Assembly: GCA_026770705.1 (NCBI GenBank)
Contig: JANJGN010000041.1
Span: 4,774,001-4,838,000, forward strand
Source of the DNA: Isurus oxyrinchus
Lineage: Eukaryota
Direction of reading: 5' to 3'
Length of the DNA: 64,000 nt
Below are positions 9,240 through 63,925 of this stretch, in pieces. The translations under genes and the position numbers were made by a program. Position 1 is the stretch's first letter. Every line of letters starts with the position of its first letter. The notes beneath the pieces were generated by a model. The model saw only the letters and a list, made by a program, of their open reading frames with translations. It did not search any database and was not told the origin of the DNA.

Positions 9240-9382
9240 GGAGAAATATAAAATACTGTGGATGCTGCTAATCTGAAAAAAAACCCTTAAAATATTGGAA
9301 AAGTTCAGCAACTTCAACAGCATCTGGGCAGAAGAAAGAAACTGACAAACATTTAGGGTCTGTGTGACTCTTCCTAAGAGCC
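9240..9382 (-). mobile_element. Old Penelope-like pLTR fragment with eroded hammerhead motif
   Basis: Diverged homolog of 42741-42880 (actgtggatgctg..aatc...cagcatc). The minus strand reads CTTAGGA-A-GAGTC-acaca-GACCC-TAAA. Confidence 0.6.
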
Positions 9383-9559
9383 TTGCATCAGAGGAAGACT
9401 CATAGGGACACAGGAAAGAAAGACTCCTGCTGCTTCCCAAATATCACCTCCCATCAGCTGATGGATATTTTAACCTCTGTGCTGAACACCACTTTAAAGG
9501 AGTAATGGCAGCGCAGATTTCACTCTGATTGCGAGTCCGAGATGTTCCTTACCAGGAAT

Positions 9560-15419: not shown

Positions 15420-16442
15420 ATTGTCTTCCTCCCATCTATCTCCTAACCTTCTCCATCAAGGGGCAATGGCCGTGAGCTGGAAGGTGCAGTCGAAGGAGTC
15501 TTGTTGTTTCTTTGCAGTGCATCTTACAGACAGTACGCAGGAGGAGGGAGTGAATGATTAGTTTGGTATCATAATCAAGTGGGCTGCTTTTCCTGGATGG
15601 TGATGAAATTCTGTAGTGTTTTGGAGCTGCGTTCATCCTTAAAAGTGGAGACTATTCTGTCAAACTCCCGACTTGTGCCTGATAGGCAGTGGACAGCCTT
15701 TGGGGAGTAAGGAAGTGTGCAACTCCCCTGGCAATTCTTGGCAGCTGAACTGCTTTTTTAGCCACGTTACCTAGGTGACTAGTCTAGATCAGTTTCTGGT
15801 CAATGGCGCCCGCCTGAAAGAAGATAGTGGGGGGATTCAGTGATGGTGATGCCATTGATTGCCGAGGGGAATGGTTAGATTGTCTCTTGCTGGAGATGGT
15901 CATTGTCTGGCACTTTTCTGGCTTGATTGTTACTTGCAACTCTTCAGCAACGTGCTGGATATTTTCCAGGGCCTGTATTTATTTTTCCTGACACGTTGTT
16001 TCTCAGTACCAACCATCCCACCCTCACCCCATGCCCACCACCAGCCTCCTCGGAGGATGAGATGAGCTATGTTATTCACAATCAGTTCGGCAGGAACTTA
16101 ATACCCTGCATGGCCGGAGGGGCCACAACATCCTGACCAGGTCATGCTGCATTTGAACCTGGGCTGCTTCATTTTCTGAGGAATCGCGAATGCTCCTGAA
16201 CATTGTGCAAACGTCAGTGAACATCCCCACTTCCGACCATATGATAGATGGACACACATTCAAGAGGCAACTGACGCCGTTTGGCACTTGGGAATTACCC
16301 TGAGGAAATCCTAAAGTGTGTTGTCTTCCTTTGCCCCTAAGGCGAGCTACCAACTGTCAACAATTTTATTCCGGCTCATTGAGGCCACCCACGGTCAAAT
16401 GCTGCCTTTCTGTCAATGGCTGTCACTCTCCTCTCGCCTCTG
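15420..16442 (-). mobile_element. CR1-group LINE RT and 3' region
   Basis: Minus strand KAAFDRG (~16390-16410) and SEVGMFTDVCTMFRSIRDSSENEA (F/YADD block). Confidence 0.8.
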
Positions 16443-37500: not shown

Positions 37501-38785
37501 CACTTTTCTGAACATATATTAGTTTAAAGATTCAAATTGATTTCCCCATCACCTTCAATCTTTATCACGACCTTCCGCACTTGATATCCAGCAGAAATCA
37601 ATTTTCAGCTTCATATTTAAAATCACTTCGCACGGATGCTGTGCTTGAGATGCCCTTTCTGCCCTTTCGGCAATAAAGTGAATGGTTTTGCTGCCGATCA
37701 ATTAATGGGAACTCTGTCCTGTCTACTAGGAAGTAAAACGCTAGTTATGACCACAACACAATCACATCATCGAATTGGTCATTAACTTTGCTTTGCAAGA
37801 AATGTGCCCCTATGGCCAATAAACATTGCCCACTCAATCTGATAGCAATATCACCGTTCCCAGTCCGCCATTAAACTGCCCTCTTGATCAGCACTGACTC
37901 CACCCATTCTGCATAGCAATGTTGCTTCACACTTTCTGCAATGAATTAGCGATGCATTCACCTGAAATAATCCTGCACAATGCCCAGCCAGCATATCAAT
38001 CTAACATTACTCATTCTGACTTAAAACACATGACTGATCAGCTCTCATTCATGAATAAAACCACTCACTGTGAACCTGCATAAGAATGTCACTTTGTACT
38101 GAATGTCATTGTACCGCCACCGTGATAACTGCTGTGTAAACTTGCATTCGGCCTTGTCTATGCTGTCTTTTATGTAGCTCAGTGACCATTTTCTGGTCGT
38201 ATGTTTTTGCCATTCCATCTTTCATCCTCTCAAGCGTTCAGAGTAGGTTCGTGCTACTGGATAATATTTTACCTTCAAGCTGAAAGTCCTGTAGCACAGT
38301 AATGCTTCCCAGTACTTATCACAACTGTAGAACACCCAGCATGCATTGCACCAATACCTCTTCCAGAGTATAACTCAACTTGGCACAGATACTATTTTGC
38401 GTATTAATTTCCCATTTCACATTGTACAACACACATGAATTGCGACTTTGCACCTCCCATTTACCTTTTAATATTCACGATGCCCAGCCGTTTGTGTACT
38501 TTCAAATTTTCCAGGTCACATTCGCCCTCAGTAATCTCAATCATTATTAAACAATACTTGCCCAGTATACGTTGAATATGGTCATTTCAAATTACGAATT
38601 ATCAACTGAGGTTTTCCTTCCCTATCCATTTTGATTCGGTCCAGTTTAAATTTAGAACATGCTCGCCTCGGAATGTAGACTGTGCATATTTGGGATGAAT
38701 GCATAATCCTTTGCTGCAACAGGAACAAAATTAGTAATGTTTATCTGTGTCGTCTATCTCCTGCTCTCTTTATCCTCTCTTACAG

Positions 38786-39682
38786 TTAATCTTGTTGCGA
38801 TTGTGATTCTTTCCCGAGGAAACTGTGGCCTTTCCAAATGTATTACCCACTATATGATCGCCGTGGCCGTGGCAGATCTCCTGGTTGTTTGTGCTGAAGT
38901 CATACTGAAAAATACGCTAGATATTTATTTCCCTGTTTTATTCTTGACCACGAGCACGGTGTGCCCTCTAAAAGCGACTGTGACTTACGCAGTCATATCA
39001 GCCTCTGTCTGGTTAACAGTGGTGTTCACCTTCGATCGTTTTGTGGTCATATGTTGTCAGAAGCTGCGAAAAAAATATTGCACGGAGACAACAGCGGCAG
39101 CTGTCATATCAGTGGTGAGTGTGTTGAGTTGTTTGATAAACATTCCCTGGTACTTTGCGTTTGAAACTGCATATATAATGGACAATGTAAATCGTGGTTG
39201 TGTCCTAACACAGAATTTTTTCAATTCTGCTGAATGGGCTGCATTTGACTTGTTTACCATTATCCTGACGCCATGTGTTCCATTCATCCTAATTTTGTTG
39301 CTAAATGCTTTGACGGCTAGACGTATTTTGGCAGCCAGTAAAGTTCGCAGGTGTCTCCGTGTTTGCAGCAAGGATTCTGAAATAGAAAGCCGAAGAACGT
39401 CCATTATTTTACTCTTCAGTATAACCGGGAGCTTTATATTGCTCTGGACAACTCCGGTTATATATATTATCTCTTTGCATGTAACAGTCACATCGAATTC
39501 TGGCGCAAATGTGCTTCATGTCAGTTGGATCCATGCTTGGGATCCTCAGTTGCTGCACAAATACATTCATTTATGTGCTGACACAGGCTAAGTTTAGGGA
39601 GGAGCTGAAGAGCAGAATGCAGTACCTTGTGAAATTGTGCATAAAATTAGGCAAATTACAGTGGAATACCCGTTCACCTTAA
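38786..39682 (+). pseudogene. GPR139/GPR142-like class A GPCR, coding exon 2, frameshifted before TM7
   Basis: Acceptor ctctcttacAG ends at 38785. Peptide NLVAIVILSRGNCGLSKC, AVADLLVV, SVWLTVVFTFDRFVVICC, IPWYF, PCVPFILILLLNALT, ITGSFILLW. TM7 and helix 8 (VGSMLGILSCCTNTFIYVLTQAKFREELK) lie in the +1 frame from 39524, with stop at 39680-39682. Confidence 0.92.
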
Positions 39683-41744
39683 CAGTAGGACATGAGGTTT
39701 GTGCCCTGAATGATTTCATGTTAGGAAAATGCTTGTAACAACGTTTAAGCATTCTGCATAAAATAATATCCTACTAAAAATGTTCATTTATACTATAATG
39801 TCAAACTGAACTCCTTTTCACAGTATACTGTATTCAATGTGATTTGTAAGTTGCGATAATAATAATAAATGATAATAAAACGTACTGAACCTCCACTGTT
39901 AGCGTTGCAGAGTTTGAAAGGGTGAATTGTGATGCCAGCTTCTGACAGCCTGGTGTTCATTGGAACTGCTGTTCTTATCAACATAAGAACACCCCAAGCA
40001 TCAGCAGCTGCATCAAAATAACTCGACAAATGTAACATAGACAAACGTCACGAATTTCCCACGATCTATTCTGGGCCAATTAGTACATAGGGGGAAATTT
40101 CAGAACATGTTACATGAAGTCTGGCACCCTGCAAATATCGGACAGTTGCACAATGAGCTGCTTCTCCAAGTTCCATATACGTCACACGATTGAAACAAGG
40201 ACGGCCTGGTCATCACGTGTTTTGTTAAAGGTCGGGTATTGACGCAATTGATCACACATTCCCACGATCCATGGTGCACAGAGACGACACCATATAATGG
40301 ATTCAAAACTTTTAAATGCGATTTCCCCCGATTCATTTGAAAGCACAAATGAAATCATACTTGTTTTTTGCACTATTAATGGGACTACCTCCTCCCCACA
40401 TGCTCATTCACAACACTCTCTGTCACATGTTATCTGTTCCTTTCACACATACAGCCTTCAAGTGGCTGTTATCATATTCTCGAATGTTTTAATAATTTGA
40501 CTTTATAGTCACTCATCAATATAGTGTATGACACTTCGACCAGGTATCAGCACGAATTCCCAGCCAGAAACCTCTGATCACACGTGGCCCTACCACCAAC
40601 TTACGTCTTTGTATACCTGTGCATATTGAATGTGAAAAATGTAATACAATTGTTCTGGTCGCATATTCTTATCATTTACCTAACTTAAATGCCGTTCGTA
40701 GAATGCAACTGTAGACGGGCTACAGCTCAGAAGCAGCCTACGTGACTCGTCCTTTCCTTATTGTATCCCTGCAGGAAGCTGCAAGCGGCAGCCACTCTTC
40801 CAGCCCTTCCCTATTATCTGGGTCATGCGCTTTTCTCAGATATTAATTCAAAAGCCCCTTGATCATTGTTAGTTAACCACTCCACACACCGGGTATAATG
40901 ATTGACCAGAACAACTGCCAGTTAAAGCAGCATTAAATAGAAAACCACAACCGCTGTCCTTGAATAAATGAACAGTAAAAACAAGACAGATTCGGTCATG
41001 GCATGAGGGGCATCGCTGGCACGAAGAGCAATTATTGCCATCTTTAATTGCTCTTGCAGCCAGGAATATGTGCTCCATCCTTCTGAGCAGCTGCAGTGTT
41101 TCTTCGCCCTGGCTGCTTAGGGCCTGAATTACTAATTGCCCAGACCACCGGCTCAGCTAGCACTCTTTTCTAAATGTTTACTCTGGCTTTTCGGTAACAG
41201 GACTTTCTAAATATACACCCCGACTTCTCAGCTTCCAGTCCTTTCTGTTCCTGAGGGAACCTAAGTTCCACAAAGTAATGCCATGACTCAACACTGTTTA
41301 GGTCCTTCATCAATGACCTTCTCTCCAGCTTATGGTCGGAAATGGGGATGTTCGCTGATAATTCCTCAATGTTCAACACAATTCATGATTCCTGAGATAA
41401 TGAAGTTGTCTATTGCCAGATGCAGCATGTTCAGGCTTTGGCTCACAAGTGGCAAAGGACATTTACAGCATACAAGTACCAGGCAATGACTATCTCCAAA
41501 TTAGAAAATCAAACCATTGCCCGTCAACATTCAATGGCATTACCTTAGCCGAAAATCATTCTAGCAGCATTGTAGTGGATATCATTGACCAGAAACAACA
41601 TAACTGGATTGGCCAATAAACACAACGTCTACAAATGCGGTTGAGATGCAACGAATTCTGCAGCAAATAACACAAGTGCTGATACAAAAACAGAATTACC
41701 TGGAAAAACTCAGCAGGTCTGGCAGCATCGGCGAAGAAGAAAAG

Positions 41745-41783
41745 AGTTGACGTTTCGAGTCTTCATGACCCTTCGACAGAACT
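41745..41783 (-). ncRNA. Minimal type I hammerhead-ribozyme fold (variant core), copy 1
   Basis: Minus strand AGUU-CUGUCGA-A-GGGUC-AUGAA-GACUC-GAAA-CG-UC-AACU. Confidence 0.7.
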
Positions 41784-42839
41784 GAGTGCAGTAAGTTCAG
41801 AGAGAGACAGGTTAGAATTGGTGAGAGGAGCAGAGAAATTGAGACGACTAATGTCGCGCCAACAGTTCTCAATGAAAAGATCAAGAGAAGGTAAGAATCC
41901 AGAGGGAGGGGTCCAGGTGGAGGGAGAATATTGGAGATGGGTAAAAGGATCCGTTGAACTGGGAGAGGACTCCTGCCCAAAGAAGTGAGCCCGGAGACGA
42001 AGACGGCGAAAGAAGAGTTCAGTATCATGCCGAGCCCGAAATTCATTGAGGTGAGGGTGTAAGGGTATGAAACTAAGTCCTTTGCTGAGCACTGAACGTT
42101 CAGCATCGGAGAGGGGAAGGTCAGGGGGTATAGTGAATACACGGCTGGGGCTGGGATTGGAAGATGAGGTGGGGACGGAGGGACAGACTGGGGTGGAGGG
42201 TCCTAGATGGGTGTTGGTGTCGATGAGTTGTTGGAGCTTGCGTTCCTTAGCAGTTGAGAGAAAGAGAAAAAGTTTCTTGTTGAGGCGTCAGATGAGCCGA
42301 AGGATAAAATGAAACTGGGGGCACGCGCAGCTTTGAAAAAGGGTACGGCGGTGCTGCTGGAGGGAGAGGTCGAGTGTGTTCATATGGCGGCGCATGGCAC
42401 TGAGTGTGGATTTCAGAATGTGACGGGAACAGCAGTCTGAGAAACGTTTTATGTCCCGGAGATACCGGTAATCCTGGGTGGGTTCGAAAGATGAGGGGTG
42501 GAATTTCAGTTGAAATCCACGTGGGGTAAGTCGGAGACGGAGGCAGTCACTGAGAAAGGAGATATGGCTGTGAAAGCGGGTTTTAGTAAACTGCTTGTCA
42601 AACACTAGGAGGGAAATGGAAAGCAAAGAAGGTGAACAAGGCAACAGAGAGATATGGAAATCTTGTCGCAGAGAGGAACAAAACTTCTTCAAGGAGGTAG
42701 GCGTTTCTTGAAGAGCAGTGGCAGTCAATTAAACACAGAGATAAAAACAAAGAAAACTGCGGATGCTGGAAATCCAAAACAAAAACAGAATTACCTGGAA
42801 AAACTCAGCAGGTCTGGCAGCATCGGTGGAGAAGAAAAG

Positions 42840-42878
42840 AGTTGACGTTTCGAGTCCTCATGACCCTTCGACAGAACT
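42840..42878 (-). ncRNA. Minimal type I hammerhead-ribozyme fold (variant core), copy 2
   Basis: Minus strand AGUU-CUGUCGA-A-GGGUC-AUGAG-GACUC-GAAA-CG-UC-AACU. Confidence 0.7.
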
Positions 42879-43449
42879 GAGCAGTTTTCTTTGTTTTTAT
42901 ACAAGTGCTGATACCCCATTTCCTTTCCACCATTTACAAGAGAGGAATTTCATGGTATACTCTCTAGTTGCTGGGATGCATGCAGCTCCAATATTAGTCA
43001 AGAAGAATGATAGCATCTTGGATAAATCAGCCATTGATTGACACCACATCAATGAACGTTGACACTGTCCACCACTGATGAACAGCGGCAGCAGTGTTTA
43101 CTATCTGCAAGGTGCGGGGCAGGAATTCTGGAAATCAACTTGGAGAATACAGTCCAAACCCACGAAAGATAATGGGCAGCAGGTTTATGGGAACACGATG
43201 ATTTGGAAGTTCCCCTCCAAGCTACTCACCAGCTTGATTTGAAATTATATCCCTGTCCCTTCCTTGTCATCGTGTCAAATTCCAGAAACTCCATCCCCAA
43301 GGGCACTATGCATGCAGAGTGGCCAGCGGGACTGCTGCGGTTCAATAAGGCAACTCCACACCATTTTCTCTAGGGTACCTATGTCTGGGCATTAAACGCT
43401 TTGCCAATGACTGGCACCAACATCCTCTTAACGAATAATGATAAAATAT

Positions 43450-43880
43450 AATTGTCCCTCTGGCTGCACAGCTACTGCACTTCCCATTTCTGCAGTCTGT
43501 CCGCTCTGTTCTACTATAACCAAATCACTTTCCTAGCTAATACTTCCTGCTTCTTATAAAACTATGCCCTAGCTATTTAGCTCCCGCACTTTTATAAATC
43601 TCTGCTCTGGGGGAAGACTGCCTTTTACCTTCCAATCTGTGTTTAGATTATCTACGTCCCGCTTTCTTATCTCTGTTATGGGGGTGTAGCCCCTTTCTAA
43701 TCTGTGCTTTTAGTATTTCTCTCTCGCTCTTTTTAAATCGCTCCTCTGGCAACTCAGCTTCCGCTCTTTTTATATATCTGCCCTAGTGCCTCAACTACTC
43801 CTCTTTTTAAGAAATATCACCTGTTCGTGCACAGCTCCCAGCTGGCTCTAAATCTCTGTTCTCACTGTTCAGCTGCAGCA
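43450..43880. repeat. Degenerate pyrimidine-rich minisatellite, period roughly 35-40 bp
   Basis: Recurrent aaatctctgctct...cagctccc..ctttt motifs. Confidence 0.5.
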
Positions 43881-55311: not shown

Positions 55312-55383
55312 TCCTAGTTCGTATACTGGTGAGTATCCCCGCCTGTCACGCAGGAGACTGGGGTTTAAATTCCCGACGGGGAG
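55312..55383 (+). tRNA. tRNA-Asp(GTC), probable pseudogene
   Basis: 63/72 match by eye to the vertebrate tRNA-Asp(GTC) consensus; anticodon loop CTGTCAC intact; T-loop/B box GTTCGA changed to GTTTAA. Confidence 0.9.
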
Positions 55384-56419: not shown

Positions 56420-57135
56420 TCATCTCAGTTTGACACGATTGGAGCACTCTGAATATGGCTGGTCCCATATCCCTCACTTCTAACACAGTCTGGGGACCGT
56501 GTGCAGTGCTGATGTCTGTATCCCTCTGCAAGAGCACCCTTGGAGAACAGTGCACAGTTCTGGTCTCCATATCCTCGGTTAGATAACATTTGTAGCGCTG
56601 TGCACAGTTCTGGTTTCCATATCACTCGGTTAGACCACACTTGGAGCGCTGAGGACAGTTCTGGTCTCAATATTCCTCGGTTAGATAACATTTGGAGCGC
56701 TGTGCACAGTAATGGTCTCCATATCCCTCGGCTAGACCGCACTTGGAGCGTTGTGCACCGATCCGGTCTCCATATCCATTGGTTAGTCGAAGCATGGAGC
56801 ACTGCGCACAGTTCTGGTCTCATATGTGTTGGTTAGGCCACACTTGGAGTATTGTGAACAGTCCTGGTCACCATACCACTCGATTAGACCACGCCTGGAG
56901 CACAGTACACAGTTCGAGTGTCCATATCCCTCAGTTAGAATACATAAGGAGCACTGTGCACGCTTGTGGCCTCCATTAGCCTCGGTTCAGTTGGACCGCA
57001 TGCAGAGCACTGGAAGCAGCGCTGGTCTCAATATCTCATGTTTAGACAGTACATGGAGCACTGAACACAGCACTGATATTCCTATCGAGATGTTAGATCA
57101 CACTAGGTACACTGTGCGCAGCATTTGGCTCCAAG
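56420..57135 (+). repeat. 51-bp CR1-derived minisatellite, ~14 copies (array 2, opposite orientation to arrays 1 and 3)
   Basis: Unit CCCTCGGTTAGACCACACTTGGAGCACTGTGCACAGTTCTGGTCTCCATAT; translates LVRPHLEYCEQSWSPY at 56829. Confidence 0.92.
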
Positions 57136-59654: not shown

Positions 59655-59963
59655 GCAGTCAAGTTACCCTAATGTGACTTGTCAGGCGTCGAAGGAATGC
59701 AGGATAGGCTTACCAGAAATGAGACCCGGGCTAGAAGGGAAAATAGAATGGGAGAAATCGCACAAATCCTGCTTGTGCTTCGTGGAATTCGGAATGTTCC
59801 TGATTAGTTGGGTTGAAATATTCAATGTGTTAAGGGGAACAGATGAGGCTGGAAAACAGAAAATATTTTCAATGGTGGAGGAGACTCACGCGAAGGGACT
59901 GCGTCTAAAATGTCAAGTCAGACTGTTCTCTGCAACATTTAGGGAACATTGCTACATACATAG

Positions 59964-60118
59964 ATAAAAACAAAGAAAACTGCCGATGCTGGAAATCCAA
60001 ATCAAAAACAGAATTACCTGGAAAATCTCAGCAGGTCTGGCAGCATCGGCGGAGAAGAAAAGAGTTGACGTTTCGAGTCCTCATGACCCTTCGACAGAAC
60101 TTGAGTTCTGCTCTTGTT
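59964..60118 (-). mobile_element. Solo Penelope-like pLTR insertion (155 bp) with 15-bp TSD, inside a CR1 fragment
   Basis: TTGCTACATACATAG at 59949-59963 and 60119-60133; the body is nearly identical to 42741-42878. Confidence 0.92.
60063..60101 (-). ncRNA. Minimal type I hammerhead-ribozyme fold (variant core), copy 3
   Basis: Identical to copy 2 over the 39 nt. Confidence 0.7.
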
Positions 60119-61429
60119 TTGCTACATACATAGGCAGGACACAACGCTAACCCCCTGCTTAAGGAAGAAAAAGATGCGAGATCTATTGCTAAAAATTAAC
60201 TGTCTCAGGTCCACACAATGGTCACAACATGGATTCAGATCACACATTTTTCACAACTTTGTGGAATTCCAGCCTGCGCATTTTTCACACAGGTGGCTGG
60301 GAAGCAGCTGGAGCCCTGTTCTGGGGCGAATCCTTCCTGCCAAATCCTGGCGCCCATGTTCAAGTCTGTCAGACAGGACGGATACTCGTGACCGGTCAGT
60401 TCTGTGATCGAAGCAAGTTTTTACCAGGCTGATAAGCAGCCCGAGACGAGCACGACGTTTTGCAAGGATGGCCAGAATGGTGTCCAAAATTGGTGCAGGT
60501 ACAAGCCAACAAACATTCTGCCCTCTTCCATCTCCTTCGACAATCCATTCTTGGATTGTGTGTCCCACTTGCGAGGCCACCATTTATTGACCATTCCTAA
60601 CAGCCCATGAGAATTTCCTGGCGGTCTACTCCCCTGTGCCGCTACAACCCATGTGTTGCCTGTGCACCCGCAGACAGTTGGAGAGTGCGGTTTGCGCCGT
60701 GACATGAGGTTACAGATTGGGCTTGCGCTCAATCCTGCCTCTGCGGCAGCTGGCCCTCAGAGCATCATGGATGCCCACTGCTGCGCTGCCCGACACGTTT
60801 GGGAGTGACACACAACACCATGGAAGGTGCCCTGAGAGTGAAGACTGGACTTTTCCCCTAAAAGACTTGGTTCCGATCAGTCCAGCTGATACCTGTCATG
60901 GACAAATTAATCTGCTCAAAGTTAGATTAGCGAGGACCGGGCCAAGCATGTTTCGCTCCTCGTGTTGGTTCTCTCACCACCTGCTACTGCAAAATGGAAG
61001 TCGAGAAAAATAGAAGGTTTTGGCTGCTGCCTGCTCACAGAGGCTTGGAAAGGCAGATGCTCTCGCACAAACACATGCTAAAGCTAGAAACAGGAGGCTA
61101 GATGTTGAAGATGTTGCTCTTCATCACGTTTTGAAGATTGTTGCCATGCTGAAACAGCCTAGAAAGGGATAAGTAGCCGGGCCCAAGCCAAGGAACGCCC
61201 CCAAGAATCGAATGGAGTGGAACAGGTGAAAGTCCCAAGCAGGCTTTTGAGTTCATTGAAGGACAGGGACCTTCCTTTCCTTCCAGCCTAACTGATAGAT
61301 CCTTCAATACACAGCCAAGACAGTAAGCAATGATGCTGCTGAGTCATTGTTACTCCTTGGCACTGACCACCCCACAAACCCAGAGTACACCCAGTGCCAT
61401 CTTTTCAATCCCAGCTGATGTTACCCCTG

Positions 61430-62730: not shown

Positions 62731-63345
62731 CGAAGGTCTATCAGCGGGCCTCTGATTTTGAGGGTCTGTCTGGCAGAACGTACACAGGGGTGGCAACGGG
62801 TGAACCTAGGGCATTAACCATAAGGAAAAAAGACTGTGTTGGTGAATGTTTGGATCTAAAGAAAGACAGTATGGCCCGGCCATGACATCTCCTCCCCTCA
62901 CTCCCTGTCGGTAGGTTGATAGACTGATCTGAGTGAGAAATGAGACACGGATAAGAAGCGGTGATCAACACAGCCAGTTTTATGCACATGATCCAGAAAG
63001 CATTTGATCATTGGCCTTTAGACCTAGAGAATGATGCAGAGCCTGAACGACAGAAATTCCTATTTGCTTCAGTCGGAGTCTCAGGCGGGTCTTGCAGTGG
63101 GACATCCTGCCTCCGGGTTACTCAAAGAGGTTGGCAGCTCCTGAACTTGAAGCGGAGGTTGCATTTCCTGTTGGCCCTGTACGCATCACAATGCTCACAT
63201 GGGAGTCTTCTACAAAACATTCAACCCCCGTCACACGGAACGATCGGGAATGGAAAACAGAAAGGAAGAGCTCATTAGTACCGTTGGTCAGAACCGCTGG
63301 GCACCCGCATGCACCTGAAACGGTTTTGGCTTAAAGTGCATACAT

Positions 63346-63925
63346 GGAGACCCGATATGTGAACAGTGGTCCATATGTGGTCTAACCGAGGCATATGGAG
63401 ACCAGAGCAGTGCACAGTGCTTCAACTGTCGTCTAACCGAGGGATATGGAGACTGAACTGCGCACAGTACTCCGATTGTGGTCTAACCGAGAGGTGTTGA
63501 GACCAAAACTCTGCACAGTGCTCAAAGTGTGGTCTATCTGTTGAGTATGGAAACCAGAACTATGTACACTGTCCGACTGTCGTCTAACTGAGGGATCTGG
63601 CGATCAAATATATGCTCAGTGCTTCGAGTGTGTTCCAATCGAGGGGTATGAAGTCCAGAAAAATGCAGAGTGCTCCATGTGTGGTCCAAACGAGGGATAC
63701 AGAGGGCAGAACTGTGCACAGCGCTCTAAGTATGATCTTACCGAGGGATATTGAGATCAGAACTTTGCAGAGTGTTCCGAATGCGCTCTCAATGAGGTTT
63801 ATGGAGACCAGAAATTTTCACAGTGTTTAACGTTCTCTCTAAATGAAAGGATTAAAGATGGGAATTGTGCACAATGCTCTATCTGTGGTCCAACCGTGGG
63901 ATATGGAGTCCTGAACAGTGCACAA
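63346..63925 (-). repeat. 51-bp CR1-derived minisatellite, ~11 copies (array 3)
   Basis: Same unit and orientation as array 1. Confidence 0.9.

Follow-up and report, generated by a model that had tools for sequence, protein, structure and literature searches.

The locus described here raises the question of whether a fragment of a Penelope-like element (PLE) enclosed by two hammerhead folds in a shark genome behaves as a retrozyme, or is a damaged copy produced by ordinary PLE insertion. It lies in a stretch of 64,000 nucleotides of Isurus oxyrinchus (NCBI GenBank assembly GCA_026770705.1, contig JANJGN010000041.1, positions 4,774,001 to 4,838,000), hereafter the window, whose whole length was analysed. 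The original prediction saw in it an RT-less PLE derivative with a hammerhead fold in each of two repeats that could excise an RNA mobilised in trans. We conclude that 41686-42900, on the minus strand, is probably a broken and rearranged Penelope-type copy and not a retrozyme. Its parts, in the direction of the element (from 42900 to 41686) and followed by a related copy in the same window, are:

42901..42914, no strand: target-site duplication, 5' side, 14 nt, exact match to 41672-41685
42881..42900, plus strand: 20-nt inverted repeat of the PLE tail end, complementary to 42741-42760
42741..42881, minus strand: 5' pLTR (copy A), with its start, hammerhead fold, putative first priming site at about 42781, 40-nt tail and putative second priming site at 42741; 97% identical to copy B over 103 nt
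42840..42878, minus strand: minimal type I hammerhead fold with A6U core CUGUCGA, 5-bp stem II and ACGU palindrome, predicted cleavage after 42844 (descriptor scan)
41784..42704, minus strand: N-terminus of the PLE ORF, 307 codons, TGA at 42288-42290, ending 15 codons before the DKG motif (homolog comparison)
41784..41786, minus strand: junction CTC, shared by the ORF, where it encodes a conserved Leu, and the pLTR, which it opens (homologs, repeat boundary)
41686..41786, minus strand: 3' pLTR (copy B), without the 40-nt tail (repeat comparison, descriptor)
41745..41783, minus strand: second hammerhead fold, A6U core, predicted cleavage after 41749 (descriptor scan)
41672..41685, no strand: target-site duplication, 3' side, 2 nt shared with the end of the element (match to the 5' side)
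59964..60118, minus strand: solo pLTR (copy C), a separate insertion with the same start and A6U core, a tail and a short inverted 5' piece (comparison copy)
59949-59963 and 60119-60133, no strand: 15-nt duplication proper to copy C (sequence match)

The priming sites of copy A are placed by analogy with Anolis Poseidon, as described in PMC11167929.

The direct repeats occupy 41684-41786 and 42779-42881; they are 103 nt long, 97% identical (3 differences) and spaced by 1095 nt. The duplication that flanks the unit is perfect over 14 nt, 2 of which are shared with the element end, hence a length of 12-14; about 1e-5 such matches are expected by chance. The repeats 1095 nt apart, the flanking duplication of 12-14 bp and the insertion as one unit of an RT-less PLE derivative with two hammerhead-shaped pLTRs were all part of the original prediction and are borne out. 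Its anatomy, correct for repeats, ORF and duplication, made no mention of solo copy C, of the start of the repeats about 37 nt upstream of the predicted cleavage site, or of the 20-nt inverted tail. The latter, at 42881-42900, is a perfect inverted repeat of the tail end, 100% complementary to its counterpart. The repeats are moreover unequal: copy A, on the 5' side, extends 40 nt into the tail, and copy B, on the 3' side, has none. The element is thus ordered as 5' inverted tail, pLTR, ORF N-terminus and pLTR, and the 14-nt duplication shows that it entered in one insertion event. Direct-repeat pLTRs with a hammerhead fold (the core deviating at position 6), a tail and an inverted 5' piece are PLE hallmarks. 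The insertion amounts to 1.09 units of 1095 nt, and there is no tandem array at the element. In the surroundings, loose 37-nt repeats in a pyrimidine-rich stretch (window 43548-43876) are an old flank repeat, and a 99-nt, 76% match between 41331-41429 and 16143-16241 also represents old repeats.

The sequence between the two pLTRs is coding in origin. The minus-strand frame from 42728 to 41763 contains one internal stop (42288-42290) and no frameshift, and it matches the N-terminus of PLE ORFs, best that of Chiloscyllium punctatum P0001 (67% over 123 aa). The nearest named protein relatives are from sharks, i.e., Heterodontus francisci (69%) and Chiloscyllium punctatum (63-67%). Protein searches gave 13 matches among longer proteins, 6 of them with the PF00078 RT; searched against the window by tblastn, 13/13 of these homologs matched at 41607-42725 only, and by their N-terminal parts only, with no RT or endonuclease match anywhere in the 64 kb. 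The element is a PLE derivative and not an autonomous member, the RT and GIY-YIG domains being absent. The expected N-terminal ORF of about 300 codons, with one stop and neither RT nor endonuclease, is therefore confirmed, at 307 codons. This homology came from the protein searches; Pfam found 0 families in either half of the ORF. Breaking where it does, the ORF lacks a median of 610 residues, RT and GIY-YIG included, and the junction Leu is conserved in 63 of 70 homologs with DKG. At the other extremity, the codon ACG (42702-42704) would stand where relatives appear to start with Met, if a one-residue indel is allowed in the alignment; the first ATG of the frame is codon 112. The CX2-5CxxC linker, which marks Neptune and Nematis PLEs according to PMC8557442, is present in 16/16 homologs of at least 780 aa. 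These long homologs suggest a Neptune/Nematis type for the element, in which the linker region itself is missing.

The decay of this ORF gives an indication of its history. The pLTR copies differ pairwise by 3/103 (A-B), 4/138 (A-C) and 4/100 (B-C). Considering substitutions only, the probability of at most one new stop in 307 codons is 0.95 at 1.5% divergence, 0.81 at 3% and 0.13 at 10%. One stop without frameshift fits 1-3% of neutral decay, which is the same depth as the differences between pLTR copies. Opposite the stop, 13 of the 69 aligned homologs have an Arg that is one transition from TGA. With so little decay, the ORF piece would have been taken from an intact element roughly when it inserted; this speaks against a non-autonomous existence of long standing, but not against a recent one.

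The hammerheads were searched with a descriptor for minimal type I folds, with canonical and relaxed cores, and 30 simulated 64-kb windows served as background. The scan found no canonical CUGANGA fold in the window; with the relaxed core it found three folds, at copies A, B and C, against 0 matches in the 30 simulated windows. All three have a 4-bp stem I, an extra A, a 5-bp stem II, GAAA, the ACGU palindrome and GUC, and their core is CUGUCGA (A6U, 3/3) instead of CUGANGA. The hammerhead fold foreseen in each repeat, palindrome included, is thus upheld by the descriptor, but the core is not the canonical one; Rfam, at gathering and E-value thresholds, called no hammerhead family and returned three chance matches. 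As controls, we used hammerheads located beside related PLE ORFs on contaminated MAG contigs (L001-L011). The descriptor matched seven times in them; five PLE-type matches were kept, and two weak AT-rich ones were dropped (L003 at 1446, with C at position 6, and L005 at 2718). A6 is present in 5/5 of the kept controls. At the nucleotide level these contigs do not resemble the element. GTDB lists them as bacterial MAGs, and six belong to one assembly; their PLE ORFs are eukaryotic and accompanied by microsatellites and canonical minimal hammerheads, which marks them as host contamination.

What this substitution does to cleavage may be approached from other variants. A natural A6C variant cleaves slowly, below 0.1 per minute (PMC3088659), and the full mutational scan of a type III hammerhead reports low activity for changes in the CUGA turn, except for a C3-G8 swap (PMC9901934). 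In minimal PLE hammerheads, activity is low even where the core is intact (PMC4209133). Our literature search, which covered PLE hammerhead variants incompletely, found no description of an A6U core. MFE folding recovered the hammerhead for no copy, a weak result given that minimal PLE hammerheads are expected to fold poorly. In a 1196-nt transcript, ViennaRNA gives near-zero probability to stem II and to ACGU pairing. The local probability of stem II is 0-0.16, compared with 0.07-0.98 in the five controls, a weak comparison, 2/5 controls being poor as well. By analogy with the variants above, the family-level A6U change probably leaves these hammerheads weak or inactive. Moreover, its presence in 3/3 copies, all within 1-2% of their majority sequence, suggests a PLE family that spread with a crippled ribozyme, which agrees with the in vitro data according to which cleavage is dispensable for insertion.

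The ends of the insertion point to the machinery that produced it. The first bases of all three copies are CTC, immediately ahead of the stem I arm (C has in addition one extra A and a 7-bp snap-back), and in each of them 34 nt separate the start of the arm from C17. No end of the insertion is at a cleavage site. Copy B terminates 40 nt short of the end point of copy C, each sharing 2 nt with its target, and the 20-nt inverted piece starts precisely at the end point of C. For Poseidon of Anolis, PMC11167929 reports that reverse transcription begins at a pair of neighbouring internal sites, which set the 30-40 bp tail, that both target strands are extended, that ribozyme mutants insert normally in vitro and that no RNA reads end at the cut site. 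PLEs as a rule have tails and inverted 5' pieces (PMC8557442). The 40-nt offset and the inverted piece would thus be the two-site priming footprint of an ordinary PLE insertion and, since both are as in known PLEs, the unit was apparently inserted by ordinary PLE machinery. Because the start is common to the independent insertions A and C, it may represent, as far as three pLTR copies tell, the natural 5' end of the parent RNA. The Pol II initiator consensus is YYANWYY. The pLTR start fits it, a weak argument, as the consensus occurs 22 times in 1215 nt. The pLTR is where promoters and start sites of PLEs are located (PMC2377424). Among the candidates discarded, a sigma-70 promoter scan is irrelevant for a vertebrate, and cryptic splicing at the AG before the core was set aside on the reasoning that A and C begin at the same base without an ORF exon.

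The explanation that we favour, and consider on balance probable, is a single insertion event: starting inside the parent RNA's 5' end, the RT would have run off, jumped to the ORF and run off once more. The maker would be the RT/GIY-YIG protein of an autonomous Neptune/Nematis-type PLE of cartilaginous fish, whose transcript would start at the first base of the pLTR. This protein would prime one nicked strand internally, about 100 nt from the 5' end of the RNA, and copy to that end; at a short microhomology (CTC or possibly a longer match), it would then switch to codon ~307, either of that parent RNA or of a second one, and copy again as far as the RNA 5' end. The opposite strand would prime a 20-nt cDNA at the second site, 40 nt downstream, and the two products would be joined. 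That copy B shares its first base with A and C would then follow from a run-off before the jump, with priming about 100 nt from the 5' end. Ribozyme cleavage would take no part in this process, the hammerhead folds being carried passively within the pLTR, and the insertion was probably dead-on-arrival. End-of-template jumps by microhomology are reported for the R2 RT (PMC4117753); our literature search found no demonstration of template jumping by a PLE RT. The exact microhomology at the junction is 3 nt (CTC). Two changes separate the three codons that follow from the Arg-Ser-Leu of close relatives, a closeness that 11% of random 9-mers equal, and an extended microhomology was accordingly left aside as weak (p 0.11). 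Two considerations count against the run-off and jump. ACTGC precedes the pLTR both in A, where it belongs to the inverted tail end, and in B, where it belongs to the ORF, with an offset of 2 nt, and this coincidence could mean that the cDNA ran past a pre-existing junction. Furthermore, a master copy transcribed linearly would yield an identical structure.

Other routes lead to the same visible parts. A full-length pLTR-ORF-pLTR copy may have lost at least about 2 kb (RT, endonuclease and 3' UTR) by microhomology-mediated deletion, during reverse transcription or later in DNA; CTC is shared at the junction, and internally deleted PLE copies are known, such as one of 2.84 kb in Chlamys-3 (PMC8557442). 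However, the deletion must end at the exact start base of A and C, i.e., about 3 positions in 1830 (+-1 nt), ~0.2% by chance by our own arithmetic from the median of 610 missing residues, and we regard this route as rather unlikely. The unit could also belong to a young non-autonomous family, a PLE analogue of the R2 SIDEs, transcribed linearly from its 5' pLTR and mobilised by the parent protein in trans without ribozyme cleavage. It retains the pLTR and the start of the ORF, both required for RNA recognition in Poseidon (PMC11167929); PLE derivatives without autonomy are on record (PMC8557442), and the ACTGC coincidence at the 5' end also speaks for it. On the other hand, the junction occurs in one copy within the 64-kb window, and the ORF piece is free of frameshifts, so that it had no long non-coding history. 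The junction peptide was in 0/169 predicted proteins and the opposite-strand frame across the junction in 0/30 candidates, both weak results given the scarcity of shark sequences there; the exact 20-mer at the junction is absent from prokaryotic genomes and has no plasmid match, which is uninformative for a shark repeat. A literature search by title found none on non-autonomous, internally deleted Penelope-like elements. Such a family is, in our estimation, improbable. An assembly chimera joining two repeat copies deserves still less credence, practically none: gaps in the window (385 N) and the repetitive nature of the family speak for it, but the perfect 14-nt duplication brackets the whole unit.

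The alternative put forward by the original prediction, a very improbable one, is that the two hammerheads pair through ACGU and cut out a 1095-nt RNA that is circularised and reverse-transcribed in trans, as a step from PLE to retrozyme. The insertion holds two folds in tandem and measures 1.09 units; a dimer of the required topology can be modelled at -11.4 kcal/mol; animal retrozymes have been proposed to derive from PLE pLTRs (bioRxiv 10.64898/2026.07.22.740005); the A6C variant retains low activity (PMC3088659); and the PLE protein can assist cleavage (PMC11167929). Nevertheless, both cores carry A6U, in contrast to the five A6 controls, and mutations of the CUGA turn are low in activity in the type III scan (PMC9901934). 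Neither end of the insertion is at a cleavage site, and its 5' end coincides with the position of the internal junction, which a circular template would not favour, the chance that an RT on a circle stops there being about 3 in 1095 by our arithmetic. The unit is 46% paired, and its circular MFE of -197.1 compares with a mean of -201.8 for 20 shuffles (z +0.7). The decay of the ORF piece does not exceed what the time since insertion would produce. The dimer is 7 kcal/mol above the best duplex (ViennaRNA) and its pairing is near 0 in the full transcript, a weak argument, as 2/5 controls fold poorly. The excision of a circularising ~1.1-kb RNA by ACGU-paired ribozymes, the central proposal of the original prediction, is hence not supported, considering the A6U cores, the ends located off the cleavage sites and a self-pairing no different from that of shuffles. 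Its extended version, i.e., a multi-copy non-autonomous shark PLE family whose A6U hammerheads cleave as a dimer with the help of the PLE protein and release the 1095-nt circle, appears just as doubtful to us. If true, it would be the birth of a retrozyme from a PLE caught in the act, by run-off at the 5' end and a jump of template, the core variant being functional.

The rest of the window, with a vertebrate-like GC content of ~42%, presents several features of its own. At 9244-9400 (minus strand) lies an older pLTR-like remnant, ~69% identical, with a decayed hammerhead-like stretch. Three related minisatellite arrays (238-600, 56519-56987 and 63344-63825) are built of 51-nt (17-codon) units that match at 64-71%; this unit presumably resembles a conserved RT segment of CR1-type LINEs. 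A single-exon frame for a rhodopsin-family receptor at 38707-39591 (plus strand; 7tm_1, PF00001, E 5e-16), whose end looks frameshifted, resembles what we take to be GPR139-like genes expanded in sharks. Finally, a degenerate tRNA-like sequence with a GUC anticodon at 55312-55383 (plus strand; Rfam 30.5 bits), which ARAGORN does not call, is probably a pseudogene or the head of a SINE.

As a single rearranged PLE copy, the element is ordinary. Its bearing comes from the fixed pLTR start and the two-site tail seen in three young copies: if these are family-wide, solo pLTRs and partial tandems, to which Schostak et al. could assign no obvious mechanism (PMC2377424), would follow from priming within the RNA close to its 5' end, run-off and a jump of template. 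The start is fixed in 3/3 pLTRs here, whereas the upstream copies of D. virilis are described as variably 5'-truncated (PMC2377424).

Among known systems, the plant LTR retrozyme has a type III hammerhead and a 4-bp duplication; with its type I folds and its 14 nt, the element falls outside that class. Animal retrozymes are described as tandem units of 150-450 nt with canonical cores, giving highly self-paired expressed circles (PMC7229834); in bioRxiv 10.64898/2026.07.22.740005, units range from 51 to 972 nt, a PLE origin is argued, and cleavage is reported for 1/9 tested dimers. With non-LTR animal retrozymes so described, the element shares tandem type I folds, no intact protein, PLE ancestry and a target duplication longer than 4 bp (14 nt). 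It departs from them by its 1095-nt unit, present as 1.09 units and not as arrays, its ORF-derived spacer, its non-canonical core and a self-pairing that is not high, so that the conserved core, short non-coding tandem unit and high self-pairing by which such retrozymes are defined are not found in it. Like R2 SIDEs (PMC6765202), it has kept ribozyme-bearing retroelement ends and lost the catalytic ORF; SIDEs, however, are described there as multi-copy parasites of R2 with HDV-like ribozymes, and the element is one copy in a 64-kb window. Poseidon of Anolis carolinensis (PAc; PMC11167929) resembles it in its two adjacent internal priming sites and in ends located off the ribozyme cut site, and differs by its clade type, its working ribozyme core and an ORF that starts inside the ribozyme, whereas that of the element starts downstream of the tail. 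The element differs from canonical EN+ PLEs, which insert as partial tandems (Neptune/Nematis; PMC8557442, PMC4209133), in having neither RT nor endonuclease, in a 3' pLTR joined to codon ~307 and in the core CUGUCGA. It is like them, as they are described, in its N-terminal ORF homology, its 40-nt tail, its inverted 5' piece, its long target duplication, and a pLTR carrying a minimal type I hammerhead with an extra base before stem II.
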